Shown here one piece after another: positions 8,830 to 28,730 of a DNA stretch of 39,344 nt. A program made the position numbers and the translations under genes. This DNA is from a virus (Duplodnaviria; Heunggongvirae; Uroviricota; Caudoviricetes). The stretch spans positions 1-39,344 of IMG/VR virus record IMGVR_UViG_645058835_000004; one strand, 5' to 3'. Every line of letters begins with the position of its first letter. Positions within the stretch are counted from its first letter, which is position 1. A model generated the notes under the pieces. It was not told where the DNA came from and made no database searches. It saw only the letters and a list, made by a program, of their open reading frames with translations.

Positions 8830-10002
8830 TTACGCGCTGACCTGGCTGGAGAAATTCACCAGGTACTGATCGGTGATGCGCTGACGCAGCATCAGGTTTT
8901 CAAGTGGCGGCACTGGCGTGTAGTCGTAATCGATGGTGAGTTTTCCGGCTTTCAGGGTGTCTTTGTCGTTCACCGACTCGTCCAGCCAGCAATCACCACC
9001 AATGAGATACCCCTGACTTACCAGGCTGCGCATTTTGGCGCGGATACCCTCGATAATGTCGCGCGCCAGCGACGGGTTCAGCGGTTTGTCCACCGCCCAC
9101 ATGTGCGCTTCTGCCATTGTGTCCGTCAGCACCTGCGCCGTGCGAGTGTAGTTTTCGAAAGCAAAAAGCGGATCATCGCTCAGACAGCGGGAACCCCAGA
9201 AGCGGAAACCATCCTTGCGCACAAGCGTGGTGACGTCGTTCTGGTTAAGCAGTCCCGCATCGGTTGCCGGGTCCTGCAGATCCCAGAACACATCAGCAGA
9301 AATTCCGGTGACACCGTTCACGCCCACGTTGGACAGGCTTTTGTGCCATCCGGTCTGCTCGTCAATTTTGGCGCGCAGACCAAGCGCACGGGCGGTGGCA
9401 TATGCCGTTGCTTCGGCATTCAGCACCGTGTCCCAGCCAGTAAAGTCAGGCCAGATCAGCATCCCTTCGCGCTGGCTAAAGTTTTCACGGTAAGTGATCG
9501 CCTCCTGTACCGTCTTGCAGCCATACGCTGACAGGTAAGCAAATCCACGCAGGCTTTGCGCCACGCTCAGCAACTCAGTAGCTACCGCCTTGGTGTCGTG
9601 GCCTGGCACGCCGAGAATGCGCGGTTTAACGCCGAGCTGTGTCTGGGCAGATAACAGGGCTTTCATGCCTGTTTTTTTACCCTCGGCGGTCACTGCGCCA
9701 ATGATATTGGTTGTGGTTTCTTCTTCCGTTTCACCCTGCGGCACACGCACAACAACGGTCACGGGTTTTGCCTGGTCAGCGATGGCATCCAGCGAGCGGG
9801 CCAGTGTGCCGGACTCACCCGCTTTACCGCTGGCAGTCAGCACATCAGTGACCAGCACGGGTTTATTAAGAGGAAACATTTTTGCATCGGCATCATCGCC
9901 CGTGCAGACCATACCCACGATGGCGGTGCTCACCGTGGTAATAGATCGGGTGCCTTCGTTGACTTCAACAACGCGCACCCCGTGGTGGTAATCCTGAGCC
10001 AT
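8830..10002 (-). CDS. Contractile tail sheath protein gpFI
   Basis: 390-aa ORF starting [13 protein letters not shown]...; first gene of the FI-FII-E-T-U-D operon. Confidence 0.9.
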
Positions 10003-10077
10003 AAGGCAGTCTCTCCGGTTGTAGAGGGGGTCTGCCTATGTTCTGGTTGATACACGCAGGGTGCACGCGATGGGGGT

Positions 10078-10095
10078 TGTATGGAAAATGGCACA
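10078..10095 (-). promoter_or_regulatory. Candidate Ogr-dependent late promoter element (PF) upstream of FI
   Basis: TGT-N12-ACA dyad (TGTatggaaaatggcACA); with the element at -64..-47 the TSS falls near 10031, about 29 nt before the FI ATG. Confidence 0.5.
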
Positions 10096-10103
10096 ACGAC
10101 GGG

Positions 10104-10129
10104 GTGAAAAAATCCCCGCAGGCGCGGGG
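10104..10129 (-). terminator. Rho-independent terminator after the tail-fibre operon (downstream of G)
   Basis: GC stem CCCCGC/GCGGGG (10114-10119 and 10124-10129) followed on the minus strand by UUUUUU (plus-strand A-run 10105-10110); begins 8 nt after the G stop. Confidence 0.5.
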
Positions 10130-10136
10130 CAGGAAT

Positions 10137-10739
10137 TTAAATTTCTGGTAGTTTGGGCCAGTTAATATCAGGGGCTGTGCTGATATCTATTGCTGCTACT
10201 ACGTCGATATAGTCAAGAACGGAATCGAGCTTTACTGTTTCTTCCGCAGTTAATTTTCTTCCGGCCTGCAATTTTAGTTGAATCAGAACAATGGAAGACA
10301 TGGCATCATCAATCAGTGACTGGCGTTGCAGTTCAGCCGCATCCACTGCTGCGTTATGTTGCGCTTTGGTATCCGTCACCCATTTCTCACCATCCCACTT
10401 ATCGTATGGTGTTAACGGAGCAATAGTGGTTGTCTTTTCAGGGTAATCTCCCGGCACTGTAATTTCTTTTGAGTCCCCCGTTTCGGTGTTATAGACGATT
10501 TCACCGCGATGGTCTGGCACATATTCCCATGAGTTTAAATCCGCAGAGCGGCAGATGGCATAACCAGCTTTATATGTTCCTGGTGCATCTAAACAGGAAC
10601 ATGCCGGAATACCGACACCAACAGCAAGATATTCAGTTGATGTGGAAATATATTCTCGTGTTTCACCATTATAATTATAGACAGTAATATCCCCCGCCTT
10701 CGTGGCAATAAACTCGCTATTTAATACGGCATTATCCAT
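10137..10739 (-). CDS. Tail fibre assembly protein gpG
   Basis: 200-aa ORF downstream of H with start/stop overlap; P2 G-like. Confidence 0.8.
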   Translation of the reverse strand: MDNAVLNSEFIATKAGDITVYNYNGETREYISTSTEYLAVGVGIPACSCLDAPGTYKAGYAICRSADLNSWEYVPDHRGEIVYNTETGDSKEITVPGDYPEKTTTIAPLTPYDKWDGEKWVTDTKAQHNAAVDAAELQRQSLIDDAMSSIVLIQLKLQAGRKLTAEETVKLDSVLDYIDVVAAIDISTAPDINWPKLPEI

Positions 10740-12391
10740 TATGCAGCCCTCACGATGTAATTAAATGAAAGGTTACGAGGGCGCATTGATATCCATGCCC
10801 CGGTAAAATTATCCTCCGCTGTCCTTTGAGTACCCGTTATGGAGTTATCTGCTGATGCAGGAACATAATCGCTATTATTTCCTGCTTTAGGATTAGCTGG
10901 GTTTCCAACAGTTATAACAGAATCAGCAGTAGCAAAAGCGATACCTACTTTGACATTAGTATTCAGATCGTAACCGTAATAATCCTGCAAAGCTGTACGA
11001 ATAAATGTTGCAGCCTGACCACTTAGCAATGAACGCCCCGTATCAATCCCTCTAGAATCATCCCAGCCACGAATAAACTCACCACGTAAATCAGGCAATT
11101 TATTTGTCGGATAAACCTTTGCCAGTTTGGGATATTCTTCAGCCGAAAAAGCCGCTCCGTTGCATTTCAGCCAGCCTGTCGGTGGAGTGGCAGAAGGCCA
11201 CGGAACAGGGACACCAACAGGTAATGCAGAGCCATCCCCTAAACCAAGATAATCAAGAACGCCCTGTGCGCTGGGCTTGCTAAGAATGGCACGCCCAACA
11301 CTTGTCAGTGCAGTTAAGGCAGCCCGATCTTCCCCTGTAAAATAAGGGAGTTTATCTTTTGATGTAGAAAGCCCTGCCAACGCCGTTAAAGTAGCATCCT
11401 TTGGCTGTTTCCCCGCAAGGGAGTTAGTTATTGTCGTGGCAAAGTTCGGGTCATTCCCCAGCGCCGCCGCCAGTTCGTTCAGTGTATCAAGTGCAGCAGG
11501 TGCAGAACCCACCATTGCCGCAATCGCCGATTTCACAAAAGCCGTGGTGGCAATCTGTGTATTGTTGACCGACTGTGCCGCCGTGGGGGCTGTCGGCGTC
11601 CCGGTAAGTGCAGGACTCGACAGCGGCGCTTTGAGTGCCAGCGCATCATTAATGGTGGTGCTGAATTTCGGGTCATTGTTTATGGCTGCGGCTATTTCTT
11701 TCAGCGTGTCCAGCGTGGCTGGCGCACCATTAATAAGGGCCTTCAGTGCCGCCTGAACAAACGCGGTGGTCGCAAGTTGCGTGGTATTATTCCCCACCGC
11801 TGGCGTTGGTGCTTTGGGGGTTCCGGTAAACGTCGGGCTGGCTTTTGGCGCGTACTGTGAATGCGGGTCCAGTGCGGCAAGATGTTTTGCCATCAGATCA
11901 TCCACGTACACCTTCAGCTCCAGTGCCTTGTCATCCACATACTTGCGGGTTGCCAGCACAACAGCAGGGTCGATTTTCAGGGTGATATTGTCCGTGCTGC
12001 TGGTTATCAGCACCATGCGCACGGTCTGGGTGCGCCCGCTGCCTTCAGCCAGTTGCGGTTTATAGCTTTCCGGGCAGTTCCCCACGGCAATCAATGCCCC
12101 TGACTCATCAAACAGGCCCACTTCACGTATCCACCAACCGCCCTCGTTTTCAGGGATCACCTGTTCAGCAATAATCTGGCTGCTGTTCTGCGGGTCGATA
12201 TAGAGCATATTCAGCGCAGCCCGGCGTTTCTCATTTACCAGTGCAGTCTGCTTTGCGTCCGGCGTCGGCAATACTCCGCCGCCATCGCCCACCGCCATAT
12301 GGGTAATTTTTAGCGGCACACCGAGCGCGGCGGCGCTGGCAAGTTTCGCCGCGCCAATATCCGTCAGCAGGGTATAAAATTTTGTGCTCAT
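10739..12391 (-). CDS. Tail fibre protein gpH
   Basis: 550-aa ORF with conserved N-terminal baseplate-attachment region and Ala/Thr-rich repeats (AAALGNDPNFATTI / AAAINNDPKFSTTI) typical of P2-family fibres. Confidence 0.85.
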   Translation of the reverse strand: MSTKFYTLLTDIGAAKLASAAALGVPLKITHMAVGDGGGVLPTPDAKQTALVNEKRRAALNMLYIDPQNSSQIIAEQVIPENEGGWWIREVGLFDESGALIAVGNCPESYKPQLAEGSGRTQTVRMVLITSSTDNITLKIDPAVVLATRKYVDDKALELKVYVDDLMAKHLAALDPHSQYAPKASPTFTGTPKAPTPAVGNNTTQLATTAFVQAALKALINGAPATLDTLKEIAAAINNDPKFSTTINDALALKAPLSSPALTGTPTAPTAAQSVNNTQIATTAFVKSAIAAMVGSAPAALDTLNELAAALGNDPNFATTITNSLAGKQPKDATLTALAGLSTSKDKLPYFTGEDRAALTALTSVGRAILSKPSAQGVLDYLGLGDGSALPVGVPVPWPSATPPTGWLKCNGAAFSAEEYPKLAKVYPTNKLPDLRGEFIRGWDDSRGIDTGRSLLSGQAATFIRTALQDYYGYDLNTNVKVGIAFATADSVITVGNPANPKAGNNSDYVPASADNSITGTQRTAEDNFTGAWISMRPRNLSFNYIVRAA

Positions 12392-14915: not shown

Positions 14916-16175
14916 ATGTTTAGATTATCTAGTGTCAAGATTGAAGGTTTTTGGGGAAGACTAAATGCATCATGTTCATTTAATGAAGATGTAAATATTA
15001 TTATTGGTCGAAATGGGACCGGTAAAACAACCTTTATGAATATTCTTCACTCAGTTCTGGCATTAGAACTTGAATCGTTAAATGAGAATAGTTTTGATAA
15101 TGTAACAATAAAAATAAAAGAAGGAAGCAAAACTAAAACAATAAAAGTTGTGAGTAAATTTGACATAACTAAGGCTTTGCCTACGTTTGAATATACAATT
15201 TCTAGAAAGAAATATATTATCAGATCCTTTGAAGATCGTAGGCTGCCTATATATATGAGGAGAAAATATCAGGAAGACGTTGAAAAACTTAAGTTAGAGC
15301 TAGATAAATTAGTTGCTTTATCTTCTCTATCAGTTTACCGACTTAGAAGCGGTGAAGATTTTGAAATCAGAGACAAATATGGCTCAAAATTAATCAACCC
15401 CGTTGATTACCGATTAGAACAATTATTGCAGAATCTAACAAAATATCAGCTTTACTTATCACAAAGAGCTCGTGATGTTTCTGCAAAATTACAGAAAGAG
15501 GTTCTTGCTTCTATTCTTTATAGTAAAGAAGATGGTATCGATGACACATTTAACTTTTCTTTTGATAAAGAAAAAGAACGTAGAAATTTAATAGCTGCAT
15601 ATTCTCAACTTGGAGCTTTTGATAGTGATGTCAGAAAGAAGATTAACTTTCACGTTGAATCTATTGCCAATACATTTGAAGAACTACGACTTGCAGAAAA
15701 AAACAACAGAAATATTTTAAATGTAGATTACAGATCATTTGAGGCATTACGAAAGACGCAAAGAATTATAAAGATGTCTTTAAAATCCGAGGAGGAAATA
15801 AAAAACATATTTCTTCCTATAAATCTATTTTTAGAAACATTACATGAGTTCATAACCGATAAAAAATTTAATTTTATCTCCGGTGAGCTAGTAATAGAAA
15901 ACGAGCATGGGCCGATTAGCCATAGTAATTTATCGTCTGGAGAAAAACAGCTATTAATTCTTTTTATTGAAACTTTGCTACAGCAAAACAAACCTTTCAT
16001 CTATCTTACTGATGAACCAGAATTATCACTACATATTGCATGGCAACGAAAAATAATACCTGCAATCAAACAACTTAACCCTAACGCACAAATTATCGCC
16101 GCTACGCATTCACCAGAAGTGGCCTCTAAATATCGAAATGCAATCTTTGATATGGAGAAATTGGTTCATGGATGA
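14916..16175 (+). CDS. ABC-type (SMC/RecF-like) ATPase, PARIS AriA-like candidate
   Basis: 419-aa AT-rich ORF: Walker A GRNGTGKTT (aa 31-39), signature-like LSSGEKQ, Walker B FIYLTDEPE, H-loop ATHSPE; opposite strand to the flanking tail genes. Confidence 0.6.
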   Translation: MFRLSSVKIEGFWGRLNASCSFNEDVNIIIGRNGTGKTTFMNILHSVLALELESLNENSFDNVTIKIKEGSKTKTIKVVSKFDITKALPTFEYTISRKKYIIRSFEDRRLPIYMRRKYQEDVEKLKLELDKLVALSSLSVYRLRSGEDFEIRDKYGSKLINPVDYRLEQLLQNLTKYQLYLSQRARDVSAKLQKEVLASILYSKEDGIDDTFNFSFDKEKERRNLIAAYSQLGAFDSDVRKKINFHVESIANTFEELRLAEKNNRNILNVDYRSFEALRKTQRIIKMSLKSEEEIKNIFLPINLFLETLHEFITDKKFNFISGELVIENEHGPISHSNLSSGEKQLLILFIETLLQQNKPFIYLTDEPELSLHIAWQRKIIPAIKQLNPNAQIIAATHSPEVASKYRNAIFDMEKLVHG

Positions 16176-17019
16176 TTTCCATTATTCTGCCGAAGCAGAA
16201 AATGTAATGAATTTATTTTACCAAGCTGAAGCCATGGTTTATGTTGAAGGCCCAGATGATATTTGCTTTTGGGAAATCATCTTTAATAAAGCTAGTTCAT
16301 TAAAGGTTGAAATCAAAGATGTTGGCGGCTGTGAAGAATTAAAAAAATATATTGATAGAGTTACTGATGAAGATCTTCAAATTATTATTGCATGTGATGC
16401 AGACTTCACTACATTTGAAAATGAAGAAAACGCTGATAGTCGTATTGTAAAAACTTATGGGCACTCCATCGAAAACACATTTATTGACAAAACAGGCATA
16501 TATAAGGCAATAAAAACTCTCGGGAAATTACCGCAAAAGATAATGAACGATGTCAACATCGATTCTTGGACAGAAGACTTTTATACCAAAATGGAACCCC
16601 TAATAAAACTTGATATATACAATCATATTTATAGAAAAGGCATTTCAGTTATTGGTGACAGTGCAGATCGTTTCATGAAATCTAGAAAATCAAATGAAAT
16701 TTGCGAGCAAAAAATCACGGATTACAAAAACACCATTATTGAAAAATTAGGTGTGGAACCAGATAACATCGATTCATCTTTCAAATCAAAATCGATAGAA
16801 TACAGAAAGTGGCTTAGAGGTCATTTTCTTTTTTCTGCAGTACATAGGTACATTAGCACAACTGCAGAAAAAAATGGAAAAAAAGTATCCTTATCATATG
16901 AATCACTATATTCCAATTTAATGAATACATTTGAATCTAATTTTACCAATACTCATATTGAGTTTAATCATTACCACGAAAAAATCAAAGCCATAAATAT
17001 GCCACACGAAATGAAATAA
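16138..17019 (+). CDS. Toprim/DUF4435-like nuclease partner, PARIS AriB-like candidate
   Basis: 293-aa ORF (alternative ATG at 16168 overlaps the upstream stop as ATGGATGA); N-terminal YVEGPDD glutamate motif and a later IIIACDADF (DxD) motif consistent with an OLD-type Toprim; AT-rich. Confidence 0.55.
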   Translation: MQSLIWRNWFMDDFHYSAEAENVMNLFYQAEAMVYVEGPDDICFWEIIFNKASSLKVEIKDVGGCEELKKYIDRVTDEDLQIIIACDADFTTFENEENADSRIVKTYGHSIENTFIDKTGIYKAIKTLGKLPQKIMNDVNIDSWTEDFYTKMEPLIKLDIYNHIYRKGISVIGDSADRFMKSRKSNEICEQKITDYKNTIIEKLGVEPDNIDSSFKSKSIEYRKWLRGHFLFSAVHRYISTTAEKNGKKVSLSYESLYSNLMNTFESNFTNTHIEFNHYHEKIKAINMPHEMK

Positions 17020-22618: not shown

Positions 22619-24385
22619 ATGAACACCACACTGACACCCGCAGATCTCGATCCCCGTCGGCAGGCCATGCTGCTGTACTTTCAGGGATACCGCGTCGCCC
22701 GCATTGCTGAAATGCTGGGCGAGAAAGTTGCAACCGTTCACAGCTGGAAAAAACGCGACAAGTGGGGTGACTATGGGCCGCTGGATCAGATGCAGCTCAC
22801 CACCGCCGCACGCTACTGCCAGCTCATTATGAAGGAGCACAAAGAAGGGAAAGATTTCAAAGAGATTGACCTGCTGGCGCGCCAGTCGGAGCGCCACGCG
22901 CGGATCGGCAAGTTTAACAATGGCGGCAACGAAGCCGACTTAAACCCTAACGTCGCCAACCGCAACAAAGGCCCGCGCCGTCAGCCGGAAAAGAATGTCT
23001 TCACCGATGAACAGATTGAGAAGCTGGAAGAAATCTTCCATTCCTCCATGTTCAACTACCAGCGCCACTGGTGGGAAGCCGGAAAAACCAACCGCATCCG
23101 CAACCTGCTGAAGTCACGCCAGATCGGCGCGACCTTTTACTTTGCCCGTGAAGCCCTGATTGACGCCCTGCTTACCGGGCGTAACCAGATTTTCCTTTCC
23201 GCCAGCAAGGCTCAGGCCCACGTCTTTAAACAGTACATCATCGACTTCGCCAAAGAAGTGGAAGTGGAGCTGAAAGGCGATCCGATGGTGCTTCCTAACG
23301 GGGCCACACTGTATTTCCTCGGCACCAATGCCCGCACGGCCCAGAGTTACCACGGCAACCTGTATCTGGATGAATATTTCTGGATACCGAAATTCCAGGA
23401 GCTGCGCAAAGTGGCTTCCGGTATGGCTATTCACAAAAAATGGCGACAAACCTATTTTTCCACGCCATCCAGCCTGACACACAGTGCTTATCCGTTCTGG
23501 TCCGGTGCGCTGTTCAACCGAGGGCGCAACAAAGCCGATAAGGTGGACATCGACCTGTCCCACAGCAATCTGGCCCCCGGCCTGCTGTGCGCAGACGGGC
23601 AGTACCGCCAGATAGTCACTGTGGAAGATGCGGTGCGCGGCGGCTGTAACCTGTTCGACCTCGACCAGTTGCGCATGGAGTACAGCCCGGACGAATACCA
23701 GAACCTGCTGATGTGTGAGTTCGTGGACGATCTCGCGTCTGTGTTCCCACTCAGCGAGCTGCAGGCGTGCATGGTGGACAGTTGGGAAGTCTGGACCGAC
23801 TTTCATGCACTGGCCCTGCGCCCGTTTGGCTGGCGCGAAGTGTGGATCGGATATGACCCGGCGAAAGGTACGCAGAACGGCGACAGCGCCGGATGCGTGG
23901 TGGTGGCGCCGCCAGCCGTGCCGGGCGGTAAGTTCCGCATTCTTGAGCGTCACCAGTGGCGCGGAATGGACTTCCGCGCCCAGGCTGACGCCATCAAAAA
24001 ACTGACCGAACAGTACAACGTGACCTATATCGGTATCGACTCAACCGGCGTTGGTCACGGGGTTTACGAGAACGTGAAAGCGTTTTTTCCTGCCGTCCGG
24101 GAGTTTGTCTACAACCCCAACGTTAAAAACGCTCTGGTACTCAAGGCCTACGATATTATCAGCCACCGCCGTCTGGAGTTTGACGCCGGACACACCGACA
24201 TAGCGCAGTCCTTTATGGCAATCCGTCGCGCCACCACCGCCAGTGGCAACCGCCCGACCTATGAAGCCAGCCGCAGCGAAGAAGCCAGCCACGCCGATCT
24301 GGCCTGGGCAACGATGCACGCACTGTTTAACGAACCGCTGCAGGGCGAATCCGCCAATACCAGCAATATTGTGGAGATTTTTTGA
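22619..24385 (+). CDS. Terminase large (ATPase) subunit gpP
   Basis: 588-aa ORF divergent from O; sequence read as P2 gpP-like. Confidence 0.9.
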   Translation: MNTTLTPADLDPRRQAMLLYFQGYRVARIAEMLGEKVATVHSWKKRDKWGDYGPLDQMQLTTAARYCQLIMKEHKEGKDFKEIDLLARQSERHARIGKFNNGGNEADLNPNVANRNKGPRRQPEKNVFTDEQIEKLEEIFHSSMFNYQRHWWEAGKTNRIRNLLKSRQIGATFYFAREALIDALLTGRNQIFLSASKAQAHVFKQYIIDFAKEVEVELKGDPMVLPNGATLYFLGTNARTAQSYHGNLYLDEYFWIPKFQELRKVASGMAIHKKWRQTYFSTPSSLTHSAYPFWSGALFNRGRNKADKVDIDLSHSNLAPGLLCADGQYRQIVTVEDAVRGGCNLFDLDQLRMEYSPDEYQNLLMCEFVDDLASVFPLSELQACMVDSWEVWTDFHALALRPFGWREVWIGYDPAKGTQNGDSAGCVVVAPPAVPGGKFRILERHQWRGMDFRAQADAIKKLTEQYNVTYIGIDSTGVGHGVYENVKAFFPAVREFVYNPNVKNALVLKAYDIISHRRLEFDAGHTDIAQSFMAIRRATTASGNRPTYEASRSEEASHADLAWATMHALFNEPLQGESANTSNIVEIF

Positions 24386-25419
24386 TGGAAAAGAGTAAGA
24401 AGAACCGCGCTGCGGCGACGAAACAGATCCAGCTTAAAAGTCAAACTACAGCCGAAGCATTCAGCTTCGGCGATCCCGTTCCTGTTCTGGACCGCCGAGA
24501 ACTGCTGGATTATGTGGAATGCGTACAGATGGACCGCTGGTATGAGCCGCCCGTCAGCTTTGACGGACTGGCGCGCACCTTCCGCGCTGCCGTTCATCAT
24601 AGTTCCCCGATTGCAGTAAAGTGCAACATTCTGACCAGCACCTACATCCCTCACCCGCTGCTCAGCCAGCAGGCTTTTTCGCGTTTTGTGCAGGACTATC
24701 TGGTATTTGGTAACGCCTACCTGGAGAAACGCACGAACCGCTTCGGTGAAGTTATCGCCCTTGAACCTGCCTTGGCAAAATACACCCGACGCGGGTTAGA
24801 CCTGGATACCTACTGGTTTGTGCAATACGGTATGACCACGCAGCCATATCAGTTCACGAAAGGCAGCATCTTTCATCTGATGGAACCGGACATCAACCAG
24901 GAGATCTACGGCCTGCCCGGTTATCTTTCTGCCATTCCGTCAACTCTGCTCAACGAGTCCGCCACGCTGTTCCGCCGCAAGTATTACATTAACGGCAGTC
25001 ATGCAGGCTTCATCATGTACATGACCGATGCTGCGCAGAACCAGGAGGATGTGAACAACCTCCGCAATGCGATGAAAAGCGCCAAAGGTCCTGGTAACTT
25101 CCGTAACCTGTTTATGTACTCGCCTAACGGTAAAAAGGACGGGCTTCAGATTATCCCGTTGTCAGAAGTCGCAGCGAAGGATGAATTTCTGAACATCAAG
25201 AACGTCAGCCGTGATGACATGATGGCGGCGCACCGTGTGCCGCCGCAAATGATGGGGATTATGCCGAATAATGTTGGAGGGTTTGGGGATGTGGAGAAGG
25301 CCAGCCGCGTTTTTGTGCGAAATGAGTTAATTCCTTTACAAAAGCGACTTGAAGAATTTAACGAATGGTTAAATGAACCAATAATATCTTTTGACCCCTA
25401 CCAGTTGAACGCTGAATAG
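24385..25419 (+). CDS. Portal protein gpQ
   Basis: 344 aa from the ATG at 24385 (overlaps the P stop TGA); the listed ORF begins 3 nt earlier at a TTG. Confidence 0.9.
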   Translation: MEKSKKNRAAATKQIQLKSQTTAEAFSFGDPVPVLDRRELLDYVECVQMDRWYEPPVSFDGLARTFRAAVHHSSPIAVKCNILTSTYIPHPLLSQQAFSRFVQDYLVFGNAYLEKRTNRFGEVIALEPALAKYTRRGLDLDTYWFVQYGMTTQPYQFTKGSIFHLMEPDINQEIYGLPGYLSAIPSTLLNESATLFRRKYYINGSHAGFIMYMTDAAQNQEDVNNLRNAMKSAKGPGNFRNLFMYSPNGKKDGLQIIPLSEVAAKDEFLNIKNVSRDDMMAAHRVPPQMMGIMPNNVGGFGDVEKASRVFVRNELIPLQKRLEEFNEWLNEPIISFDPYQLNAE

Positions 25420-25463
25420 ATTATCCCTGTCTAACCAGTCAAGCATCGCCTGTGTGCGACTGG

Positions 25464-26009
25464 TTAAAATCTACGCCTAAATCCTAGTTTCTCACCCGGT
25501 GTCATTGCCCTACCGACCGCTCCTTCTAATAAATGAGTGTTGTTCTGTAAATGCTCGCGAGCCCACGGCTGCAAATTGAAAGCGAATCCGTCAATCATAC
25601 TGCCCACGTTTGCAGCTCTATAGGTTATGCGCTTAGCAACCAACCCCCCCATAACACCATCTTCAGGACCACACATTAGTGAGTTTTCGCCATCAATTAT
25701 ATAAGACCAGAGGTATCCCTTCTCCTCAGGAGTTAGCTTCTCCAAATAAGAGATACGTACTTTGTGCCTTTGTCTATCGCCATATAGGTCATGAAAAAAC
25801 TGATATACTCTTGCAACTAAAAAAGAGACAGCCAGTAAAAATGCTGGTCCTATGAAATTTCTATATTCTTTACGGAAACCATCAACCGCAACTTTAGAAG
25901 CTAAAGATTCTGGCAAAAAAAGGATCAAACTTAAACCACATGTAATAGCTACAAGAAGTGCCGTTGGAATCTTTCTAAAAAAATCCAATAATCCAGTAAT
26001 AGCATCCAT
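25464..26009 (-). CDS. Small membrane protein, moron between Q and cos (possible superinfection-exclusion-type protein)
   Basis: 181-aa ORF with two N-terminal hydrophobic segments and a soluble C-terminal domain; lower GC than the flanking backbone. Confidence 0.5.
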   Translation of the reverse strand: MDAITGLLDFFRKIPTALLVAITCGLSLILFLPESLASKVAVDGFRKEYRNFIGPAFLLAVSFLVARVYQFFHDLYGDRQRHKVRISYLEKLTPEEKGYLWSYIIDGENSLMCGPEDGVMGGLVAKRITYRAANVGSMIDGFAFNLQPWAREHLQNNTHLLEGAVGRAMTPGEKLGFRRRF

Positions 26010-26095
26010 TTATTTACACCTCAATATGCTCAAAAAACCGCGTCAAATTCTACCTCATAACCTTACTAAAAACACCGTATCCCCATCAGCGCGCG

Positions 26096-26114
26096 CTCGT
26101 ATCCCCGCCACGCC
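26096..26114 (-). other. Candidate cos site (cohesive-end region)
   Basis: Minus-strand GGCGTGGCGGGGATACGAG resembles the P2 cohesive end GGCGAGGCGGGGAAAGCAC as I recall it (14 of 19 identical); lies distal to Q; direct repeat CGTATCCCC 23 bp away. Confidence 0.45.
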
Positions 26115-26432
26115 TGCCCGCTTTATGTAGTGGTTTTCATGCACCTGCATGTTCTACGTAAAAGCCCGCTAGTTCTGGCGAGCCTTAGCAAAAACGATCC
26201 TTAAACGATCATGCGATTTCATGCAGCATAGTCATGCACTGTCTAAGAGAAGTGAAAGTCCCTGAATGACCACTTGAAAAACGAAACATACAGACTTACA
26301 AAGATGAAGCTCTACTGTGAGCGAGGAACATACATAGTTGCTCTGTAATAGCCAAATTTTAAGCAGGAAATCTCTTTTTTATGACAAAACTATAAAGAAA
26401 AACAGACCGTTTCATCGCTCGATGAAAATATA

Positions 26433-28010
26433 CTACAATACTTTTCTCTCGATGGTATTTTTAATGGTCAACATATCTTTAGGAATACTTTTTTTCCCCT
26501 CTATACGTATGGTAAACACAAAAAGAATAACTGCTGATCTCACAATTTTCATGAGTTGTAAGAGCTGTTTCTCAAACTTTTCTTTCTCAATAAATCTCAC
26601 CTCATCAAAAAATCCATAAGAATTATATAAATCAACTAACATGTCTTTCTCGTGAATAACTAACAGTTTATGTTCTAAATCATTCCTCCATTCTTTAAAA
26701 AAAGCAAGCTCACCATTTTTATCATTCAAATCCATAGCAATACTAAACAAACCCAGCAATCCTTTATTATTTATTTTGTTTATTTTAAGCTTTCTTTTTT
26801 CATCACTAATCCGCCAGAAGTTATGAAAGTATATATGTCCTCTATCTGGTTTTAAATCAAATAATTGACACAGAGCAACTGCTATTTTATCCAAGATACC
26901 AAAGCAAGCTCTAAATGCAACCCTTAACTTCTCAACATTTTCATACAATATTTCTCCATTATACAATTCAGAATAACATACCTCCGAATCCTCATCAAAA
27001 AACTCACTATCAACCTTATATTCAAAAAACATTTTTCGTGCTAAGGAATACTCAGCTTTAAGTCTATTTAACACCATTTCCATTGGCACTATAAAATCAC
27101 CAAACACACCTTCCTCGGTGGTAGCAATAGTTATATTATCTTTAGATGACGCATAACAATTGCAATATAGCGAATGATCAGACAACATTAGATTATTATC
27201 TATACAAAACCTCTGGTAGTTTGATAAAGTATCATACTCCTCCTGCGTGAGCCTTTCATCTGTACTTATATCCTCTATGCCATATACACATGATTCACTC
27301 AATATACTTTCGTTGTACTTTATTTTTCTTTGAAGAGCAACCTTCCATGAAGGAAAACATTTCCCTGACTTTATTGCACACTCATAACCTCGAATAACTT
27401 CTTTAATCATTTTATATGTATATGTTGTAGATAATTCATTAAGCAATTCTAATGCCTCAGATCTGTTTACCCACGCCTGAGGAATTGAGTTATCAATAGA
27501 TATTGCTTGTTCATAATAATCCATTGATTCAGATATACGATATTGTTTTTTTAATACATTAGCTAGATTAACTATTAAATCAGGGGGCACCCATCCATCT
27601 TCTTGTGAAAGTTTAAACGCTTTCCAGTAATTATTTTTTACATCATTCAGCTTAATGAAACTATCAATATCTGCATTGTCATTAGGATTAAAATCAAGAA
27701 CTGCGCTCATTCCATTTGCCAAGTTATAGTAATATAAGGATTCTTTCATTATAGTCAGAAATTCATTTTTATTGTTTATAAAGATATTTAAGCCTTCCTC
27801 CGCTATATTTTTTACATTACTAAAACTTCCGATATCAATAAGATTTCCGGCCAAATTAGATAATATAATTATTCTATTTTCTTTGATTGTATTTATCTCA
27901 TCGATACCGTTAAGAATATCCTTTACATTTTTATAGGCAGAATCAAATGAACCTGCATTAATAAGATCATCTACGAACCCCATTTTTGAAACAACATAGT
28001 TGATATCCAT
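26433..28010 (-). CDS. Cargo protein with TPR-like repeats and C-terminal HEPN-like RNxxxH motif (candidate abortive-infection/defence RNase)
   Basis: 525-aa strongly AT-rich ORF at the P2 old/tin-equivalent position; TPR-like helical segments; motif WRNDLEH (R442-H447, approx. 26670-26687). Confidence 0.5.
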   Translation of the reverse strand: MDINYVVSKMGFVDDLINAGSFDSAYKNVKDILNGIDEINTIKENRIIILSNLAGNLIDIGSFSNVKNIAEEGLNIFINNKNEFLTIMKESLYYYNLANGMSAVLDFNPNDNADIDSFIKLNDVKNNYWKAFKLSQEDGWVPPDLIVNLANVLKKQYRISESMDYYEQAISIDNSIPQAWVNRSEALELLNELSTTYTYKMIKEVIRGYECAIKSGKCFPSWKVALQRKIKYNESILSESCVYGIEDISTDERLTQEEYDTLSNYQRFCIDNNLMLSDHSLYCNCYASSKDNITIATTEEGVFGDFIVPMEMVLNRLKAEYSLARKMFFEYKVDSEFFDEDSEVCYSELYNGEILYENVEKLRVAFRACFGILDKIAVALCQLFDLKPDRGHIYFHNFWRISDEKRKLKINKINNKGLLGLFSIAMDLNDKNGELAFFKEWRNDLEHKLLVIHEKDMLVDLYNSYGFFDEVRFIEKEKFEKQLLQLMKIVRSAVILFVFTIRIEGKKSIPKDMLTIKNTIERKVL

Positions 28011-28297
28011 TCAATCCTCTTTAAACTAAGCTAATAATACCAATCATTATATGGATGAGATCAATATAGAACATGCCATCTCCGGCAAAAATCGTACTAC
28101 ATCAGACCAGTGCCCTTCAAATAATATAAATTGAACTTAGATACTTCTGCTTCAACCAGTGTGTTAAATCCATCGCTTGAACTCAGAACAAAAAGCGGAC
28201 GATCACTTATCAAAATGGCCGTCCACCTAACGCCTCGTTTCACTCGTTGCCCAAAATAGTCCCCCATCAGAATGAATCCTCTTGGGGGCAACGTTTC

Positions 28298-28531
28298 TTA
28301 ATGCAGCCAGCTGTCGTCTTCCCACACCTTCTGCATAATTTTCATCACTTGCTTCCTTTCTTCGTCCAGTTGCAGTCCGATCAGTTCCACACCGTTAGAG
28401 CTACCTTTGCGAATGCGAATTACCGTTTTGGGATACAGGGGGCGCAGATTGCGGTAAAGCTCGGATTCAAGGGCGTCCAGGGTAGACTGGCTAATCTTCT
28501 GCTCTTTATCGATCATTATTTCAATGCGCAT
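28298..28531 (-). CDS. DinI-family protein (Tum-like antirepressor module)
   Basis: 77 aa from the internal ATG (MRIEIMIDKEQK...WEDDSWLH) with DinI-like layout; second gene of a LexA-boxed operon. Confidence 0.75.
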   Translation of the reverse strand: MRIEIMIDKEQKISQSTLDALESELYRNLRPLYPKTVIRIRKGSSNGVELIGLQLDEERKQVMKIMQKVWEDDSWLH

Positions 28532-28541
28532 AAAAGTCACC

Positions 28542-28730
28542 TCAGCTGATGACATCCATTGAGCGGTTGTATTCGTGGGTTCTGATTTTTGCCATGAGTT
28601 CATCTGTCAGTTCAGAAACCCACTGCAGGGCCAGCCCCTTCTCTTCATCACTACACTCACTAGCCGCTACAAGCTTAAGAAAAAAATCAATGCGCTGGAG
28701 CTTCAAAGACTCCAAAAAATAGTCCTGCAT
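28542..28730 (-). CDS. Small hypothetical protein, first gene of the SOS operon
   Basis: 62 aa from the internal ATG preceded by GGAGG; the longer ORF to 28832 would read through the LexA box. Confidence 0.4.
   Translation of the reverse strand: MQDYFLESLKLQRIDFFLKLVAASECSDEEKGLALQWVSELTDELMAKIRTHEYNRSMDVIS

Follow-up and report, generated by a model that had tools for sequence, protein, structure and literature searches.

A TPR-HEPN Protein of the LA2681-Like Family in the cos-to-gpA Slot of a P2-Like Prophage as a Candidate Single-Gene Anti-Phage System

Prophages are known to encode single HEPN proteins that act against other phages. HepS from Salmonella prophage Gifsy-1 requires neither an antitoxin nor a partner; it is held inactive, is activated by a phage structural protein and works as an RX4-6H RNase that cuts tRNA anticodon loops (PMC13043305). 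Tha, a HEPN effector borne by Staphylococcus aureus prophages and belonging to another host phylum and another protein family, is tail-activated and triggered by the structural proteins of incoming phages (PMC11087260). The gene considered here lies in a 39,344-nucleotide (nt) stretch of viral DNA (Caudoviricetes; IMG/VR record IMGVR_UViG_645058835_000004, positions 1–39,344), which is referred to below as the window. It occupies positions 26433..28010 on the minus strand and encodes a protein of 525 amino acids (aa), which joins an N-terminal TPR array to a C-terminal HEPN domain of the LA2681-like family. This protein can be considered a candidate single-gene abortive-infection RNase, to which HepS, likewise a prophage-encoded single HEPN protein, offers the best functional analogy.

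Other described systems share part of this layout. ApeA (Gao_Ape; HEPN_Apea) and DS-11 (CBS+HEPN) likewise combine an N-terminal regulatory domain and a C-terminal HEPN nuclease in one polypeptide. ApeA-type genes are among those recorded at the P4 hotspot by Rousset 2022, and mutation of the HEPN catalytic residues abolishes defence by DS-11. The N-terminus of these proteins is an ApeA_NTD or CBS domain, in contrast to the TPR array of the window protein, which gave no PADLOC or Pfam match to either system. TPR sensors are also found in Avs/NLR-like STAND proteins and in TPR-CHAT of type III-E CRISPR; the window protein differs from these in being only 525 aa long and in having no STAND NTPase between sensor and effector. 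As for genomic position, P2 carries old and tin, two exclusion genes expressed in the lysogen, between cos and gpA at the right end of its genome (Rousset 2022), and this slot is a hotspot whose anti-phage role has been shown by experiment (Rousset 2022; Vassallo 2022). The window gene occupies the same slot but has no homology to Old or Tin, the Pfam scan of its product giving only HEPN_LA2681 and TPR families.

The LA2681-like family was named in 2013, when it was described as 'fused to TPR' and as conserving the Rx4H motif (Table 1, Anantharaman 2013, PMC3710099). Judging by the profile match, the 525-aa protein is a member of this family: Pfam PF18733 (HEPN_LA2681) was the sole strong match, with a score of 132.4 bits against a gathering cut-off of 27 (E-value 1.8e-38), and the N-terminal TPR fusion is present. 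No structural difference from the rest of the family was seen, and the P2-prophage copy is one AT-rich allele spreading among the mobile elements of Enterobacteriaceae. The HEPN part alone, used as the query of an exhaustive HMMER search, retrieved 716 clusters at 50% identity (E <= 1e-3), mostly from Proteobacteria and located on prophages, transposons and islands. The family is thus small and its architecture uniform, as the full-length homologues are nearly all 500–550 aa long, with the HEPN domain at approximately residues 300–520. The protein is identical to WP_000354145.1, the gene of which RefSeq names after the LA2681 family. In the P2-hotspot arrangement table of Rousset 2022, WP_000354145 is listed as 'HEPN_LA2681 + AAA_15/AAA_21' and LA2681 is mentioned at least 21 times. 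The protein is not among the systems cloned in that work. Hence, the family, the TPR fusion and the presence in the P2 hotspot are already on record, and the 525-aa protein is an uncharacterised member rather than a new kind of protein. A preliminary description of the locus, made from the sequence without database searches, had recognised no named system. The family itself, however, was already named, annotated in RefSeq and present in the Rousset 2022 catalogue. PADLOC 2.0 has no model for the protein, and the PADLOC-DB 2.0 scan returned only a generic TPR model (E-value 3.5e-4) and a marginal Csx1/Csm6 match (E-value 0.074). Nothing informative came from scans against NCBIfam and PHROGs.

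The open reading frame (ORF) starts with ATG, ends with a stop codon at 26433–26435 and is preceded at a distance of 4 nt by the Shine-Dalgarno sequence AGAGGA (28015–28020). The probability of 525 codons free of stops arising by chance is about 1e-22, given the ORF's own base composition. The GC-content of the gene is 0.306 (0.266 at third codon positions), below the 0.489 of the window as a whole and the approximately 0.55 of the phage genes around it. The coordinates, length and very low GC-content given in the preliminary description were accurate.

The domain composition of the protein, namely a TPR array, a linker and a HEPN domain, can be stated with high confidence. The full-length AlphaFold2 (AF2) model is confident (pLDDT 85.7, pTM 0.88). 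The N-terminal domain, aa 1–245 (27276..28010, minus strand), comprises 11 helices forming about 5.5 hairpins, and the tandem helix-turn-helix hairpins are wound into a superhelix, in agreement with the TPR-like repeats proposed earlier; only one TPR repeat (aa 145–186) is detectable from sequence. This part is proposed to be a sensor or regulatory domain. It is followed by a conserved linker, aa 246–306 (27093..27275, minus strand), with invariant columns in an alignment of 34 sequences, and then by the HEPN domain. The Pfam match of the latter covers aa 309–504 (26499..27086, minus strand) and profile positions 9–204 of 204; the match and the AF2 model together place the domain at about aa 307–507, that is, starting well before aa 430–525, where the preliminary description had expected it. 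Fold searches with the full-length model were dominated by TPR matches, so aa 245–525 were modelled separately. This part has the all-alpha, four-helix up-down core of HEPN proteins, and its closest structural matches are the HEPN-MNT toxins (PDB 8xdj, 5yep and 7ae2). Sequence and profile searches against the PDB returned TPR matches only, with no LA2681 member of solved structure.

The HEPN signature consists of Rx4-6H with a polar residue (N, D or H) after the arginine, and mutagenesis of RNase L, PrrC and RloC links it to metal-independent RNA cleavage (Anantharaman 2013, PMC3710099). In the window protein, the predicted RNase active site is W-R442-N443-D-L-E446-H447 (WRNDLEH, aa 441–447; 26670..26690, minus strand), an Rx4H motif with asparagine after the arginine. 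None of R442, N443, E446 and H447 varies among 34 homologues with identities down to 38%, and the residue numbering R442/H447 used previously was correct. This conservation bears on the question of whether the domain is catalytic at all. Some HEPN families have lost catalysis and serve as binding domains (Anantharaman 2013, PMC3710099), and the protein might by analogy be a TPR adaptor in which HEPN is a ligand-binding or scaffold element. Such families, however, have lost the Rx4-6H motif, which here is intact in all four positions and is listed as conserved in the LA2681 family (Table 1, Anantharaman 2013, PMC3710099), making a non-catalytic HEPN domain very improbable. A HEPN fold was predicted, the motif was conserved among homologues and no structural or metabolic family was matched, these being the three points on which the preliminary description had been prepared to give up its interpretation.

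A second conserved element lies outside the Pfam HEPN model. The linker motif L276-S-x-H279-x2-Y282-C283-x-C285...D291 is invariant, as is C369 within the HEPN domain. Among distant homologues, mean identity is 50% in the linker and 49% in the HEPN domain, compared to 32% in the TPR part. The pattern of invariant residues suggests that H279, C283 and C285, together with C369, may form a metal-binding element or one supporting the active site.

The genes neighbouring the 525-aa ORF identify the window prophage as P2-like. The terminase (22619–24385) and portal (24382–25419) genes and the gpA-type replication gene (28884–31331, minus strand) were taken from the ORF list, and they follow the same order in related prophages, where they are annotated or have Pfam families. 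Between the portal gene and cos lies a SieB-family gene (25464–26009, minus strand; Pfam PF14163, E-value 2e-22), and a DinI-like gene found by the Pfam scan is located at 28298–28603 on the minus strand. The exact 19-nt cos sequence of P2 has no match in the window, even allowing 3 mismatches. Alignment with the P2 cos-flanking sequence printed in Table S2A of Rousset 2022 located an analogue, CTCGTATCCCCGCCACGCC, at 26096–26114 on the plus strand. It lies outside the 525-aa gene and separates the slot of that gene from the slot of the SieB-family gene. The ORF therefore stands on the cos-to-gpA side, between cos and the DinI-like and gpA-like genes, which bears out the old/tin position assigned to it earlier.

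The limits of the imported DNA were set by comparison with L002, a P2-like prophage that carries SieB and DUF4145 genes and no HEPN gene, and by the GC profile. L002 matches the window at 25400–26239 and resumes at 28288, which delimits an AT-rich cassette at 26240..28287 (minus strand, cos-to-DinI slot) with breakpoints at cos and at the DinI stop. In the HEPN-carrying prophages, common homology begins at window position 26081–26090, at the edge of cos, approximately 6–15 bp from the 19-nt sequence, among prophages with different cargo in the left slot. These positions suggest reassortment at or near cos. Because homology starts at the cos edge and L002 matches up to 26239 and from 28288, the window is, on the evidence of the alignments, a mosaic of two independent slots flanking a shared cos segment of about 150 bp.

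The survey of related prophages called for in the preliminary description was informative in this respect. The identical protein was found in 1049 blocks of the assembly collection, and in the places read, many of them in E. coli, it always belonged to a P2-like prophage and adjoined DinI and gpA. The neighbour across cos, on the portal side, varies while the HEPN gene keeps its DinI-side slot. This neighbour is SieB in the window, and elsewhere AIPR, a retron (STM3845 with a reverse transcriptase (RT)), an insertion sequence with GmrSD, a 585-aa RT, a PIN protein, a 671-aa AAA ATPase, an unknown 554-aa protein or essentially nothing.

The same survey contradicts the idea that SieB and the TPR-HEPN protein form a two-gene system. 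In the window, both genes are AT-rich, adjacent and on the same strand, as might be expected of such a pair. However, cos lies between them, which places them at opposite ends of the packaged genome, and SieB stands beside the HEPN gene in 0 of the 11 complete E. coli genomes that carry the latter. SieB also occurs without the HEPN gene, e.g., with DUF4145 in L002, and the mosaic joins the two at the shared segment of about 150 bp. This arrangement is rejected, its probability being close to nil.

A conserved region travels with the gene. Flanks of about 140 nt on the 5′ side and 125 nt on the 3′ side accompany the ORF, with 73–78% nucleotide identity, in a Salmonella lambdoid prophage and in Yersinia islands, the surroundings of which are unrelated to the P2 slot. 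The 5′ portion of this region (28011..28150, minus strand) includes the AGAGGA sequence and a TATAAT hexamer, and it shares 76–78% nucleotide identity with the Salmonella and Yersinia upstream regions. The TATAAT at 28046–28051 is perfectly conserved and is a candidate for the gene's own promoter, a function suggested by its conservation; a scan for consensus promoters and terminators gave results at background level and did not list it. The only other ORF in the cassette, 64 aa long with a TTG start (28097–28291, minus strand), is called as a gene of 56 aa in some assemblies. It was considered as a potential antitoxin and rejected, its protein being unconserved in the Salmonella and Yersinia cassettes, and it is probably not a gene. 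By comparison of these contexts, the TPR-HEPN gene moves as a single-gene AT-rich cassette.

Homologues occur in various other mobile elements. Alleles with 81–83% identity were found in a Salmonella lambdoid prophage beside the antiterminator Q and in integrase- or AbiE-bearing islands of Yersinia, in both cases among toxin-antitoxin genes, and a copy with 57% identity is located in a Pantoea island. At about 41% identity, a Cellvibrio copy lies in a relaxase-bearing element with AbiE, Fic, a HigBA-like pair and ArdA, a Vibrio copy belongs to the cargo of a Tn7-like element beside a Cap4 nuclease and a Pseudomonas copy stands beside a PAAR toxin and an integrase. The neighbours differ in each of the contexts examined, and no recurring partner gene was found among them. 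The locations are those of defence hotspots and islands, with AbiE, Cap4, retron, GmrSD, AIPR and PARIS among the neighbours. The slot retained while its neighbour changes, as well as the absence of a conserved partner in distant contexts, agrees with the single-protein status proposed in the preliminary description, and the context survey strengthens the single-gene defence hypothesis built on the protein sequence. A search of plasmids yielded only 6 distant LA2681 proteins, with 24–27% identity. In the Vibrio parahaemolyticus Tn7-like element (L007), a 622-aa protein without a Pfam match is encoded at 9619–11487, in the orientation of the LA2681 homologue and 40 nt beyond it, and could be a partner specific to this lineage.

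The company of toxin-antitoxin genes in Cellvibrio, Salmonella and Yersinia raises the question of whether the protein is a selfish toxin or a competition module, which would either stabilise the prophage by addiction or target P4-type satellites or competing P2-like phages at co-infection. HEPN domains are frequent as toxins of toxin-antitoxin pairs, the closest structural matches of this one are HEPN-MNT toxins, and the cargo of P2 and P4 hotspots has been discussed in terms of competition between elements (Rousset 2022). The HEPN-MNT toxins, however, are proteins of about 130 aa neutralised by an adjacent MNT antitoxin. No MNT or other antitoxin gene was seen to accompany the LA2681 gene in any of the contexts examined, so the protein does not qualify as a type II toxin, and the 64-aa upstream ORF is not conserved either. 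Addiction requires an unstable antidote, and a selfish role is therefore regarded as improbable.

We propose that the TPR-HEPN protein is a self-contained sensor-effector RNase acting by abortive infection, and the probability of this whole chain is estimated at roughly 0.6. The lysogen would make the protein from its own promoter and keep it inactive. The protein would have to be autoinhibited because no antitoxin gene accompanies it, as has been shown for HepS. When another phage infects the cell, the TPR domain would bind a phage product or lose a host ligand, which would permit or re-arrange dimerisation of the HEPN domain and thereby create a composite, metal-independent RNase site. The RNase would then cut tRNA, rRNA or mRNA, translation would stop and no phage yield would be obtained, an abortive infection through which the lysogen population, and with it the prophage, would be protected. 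An E. coli LA2681 protein, WP_244588239.1, has been classified by DefensePredictor as a predicted novel defence gene with a log-odds value of 9.1, and no validation record for this candidate was found.

A defence of another type would fit the same domain and context evidence. The activated HEPN RNase might act directly, destroying phage transcripts or RNA needed by the phage so that the infected cell survives, and direct rather than abortive immunity was observed for several candidate defences of E. coli prophage hotspots (Vassallo 2022). On the other side, the characterised solo HEPN defences of prophages, HepS and Tha, are abortive, and HEPN RNases have no known discrimination between self and non-self unless guided. 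Direct immunity is thus considered rather unlikely compared to the abortive action proposed above.

The frequency of the gene bears both on abortive infection and on a third possibility, namely that the protein is a regulated RNase with which the phage turns over host or phage RNA in its own lytic growth or induction. The gene points the same way as DinI and gpA, the adjacent early replication genes, and read-through from their operon is possible. Against such a role, almost all P2-like prophages lack it. Of 5426 complete E. coli genomes, 11 have the gene, in all cases with at least 99.6% nucleotide identity, compared to 1281 genomes matching the flanking backbone, and a tblastn search of 50,697 isolated phage genomes (INPHARED) gave no match. 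The cassette, moreover, brings its own conserved upstream region and also resides in non-phage islands and Tn7-like cargo, and participation in the phage's own cycle appears quite unlikely.

Several considerations weigh against abortive infection as proposed here, the same rarity among them, with only 5 IMG/VR contigs and no isolated INPHARED phage carrying the gene. RNase activity, dimerisation, the trigger, the target and the abortive phenotype are all features that we infer from sequence and models. A literature search found no experiment on any LA2681-family protein, and PADLOC 2.0 offers no model of it. Two single-gene HEPN candidates from P2 and P4 hotspots, pFR83 ('HEPN-TPR') and pFR103, appear only among the 'additional tested systems' of Rousset 2022 and are absent from the systems validated there, with a panel of 8 phages. 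Finally, the TPR domain is under purifying selection with no visible diversification, which would be no less expected if it bound a conserved ligand, or served purely for structure or oligomerisation, than if it sensed phages. As to the identity of the two cloned candidates, both were considered as potential LA2681 members and rejected: pFR83 has no Pfam match, and pFR103 ('Putative HEPN') belongs to DUF7380.

The selection estimates were obtained against the Salmonella and Yersinia alleles. The ratio of non-synonymous to synonymous substitution rates (dN/dS) is 0.15–0.18 overall, 0.15–0.23 for the TPR domain and 0.135–0.143 for the C-terminal part, and all three alleles compared keep a GC-content of about 31%. 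The protein is under purifying selection. Near-identical E. coli alleles (L001, L017, L019 and L028) differ in amino acid positions 12, 23, 36, 62 and 159; all five positions belong to the TPR domain, and the C-terminal 280 residues are free of differences (p ~0.02 if uniform, in a very small sample).

A more specific version of the proposed mechanism can be put forward tentatively. The LA2681 TPR-HEPN protein might be a compact one-protein immune sensor-effector, in which the TPR array would directly recognise a conserved phage protein and the H279-x3-C283-x-C285 linker, possibly a metal site with C369, would release the HEPN RNase. If this were true, trigger and RNase would be coupled in a new way, without the STAND NTPase or second messenger of other TPR-containing immune proteins, and the first named and validated LA2681 member would come from the P2 old/tin slot. 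Current concepts would remain unchanged, as HEPN effectors are expected in prophage hotspots. Validation of the gene would nevertheless turn an annotated, functionally blank HEPN family into a defined single-gene anti-phage system and fill one more entry of the P2 hotspot catalogue. As a small protein with no partner, it is also a tractable system in which to ask how a TPR domain controls a HEPN RNase and what part of a phage it senses.

At least four distinct AT-rich cargo modules (PARIS, SieB, TPR-HEPN and DUF3644-like with PDC-M11) are present in the window prophage, making it a useful case of defences stacked naturally in one element. Among the tail and late genes, an AT-rich island (GC-content about 0.30; 14916–17019, plus strand) contains two overlapping genes. 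The first encodes a 419-aa AriA-like ABC ATPase (PADLOC AriA, E-value 1e-38; Pfam AAA_21/AAA_15), and the second encodes a 293-aa AriB-like DUF4435 protein (AriB, E-value 3e-24). Judging by these matches, the island looks like a PARIS system, and its site probably corresponds to the second P2 hotspot described in Vassallo 2022.

A further AT-rich island is located between the genes for the CI-type repressor and the integrase (36030–38234, plus strand). One of its products, of 260 aa, matches DUF3644 weakly (PADLOC, E-value 2e-5) and has an R-N-K-V-I-H (Rx4H) motif, so that it may likewise be of the HEPN type. Next come PDC-M11A (356 aa, E-value 2e-130) and PDC-M11B (127 aa, ASCH domain, E-value 5e-48), a candidate defence pair in PADLOC. 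The adjacent CI-type repressor (35073–36029, plus strand) is 318 aa long, compared to 189–198 aa for the repressors of related prophages, and contains two copies of the Phage_CI_repr helix-turn-helix domain before its C-terminal domain, which looks like an N-terminal duplication.

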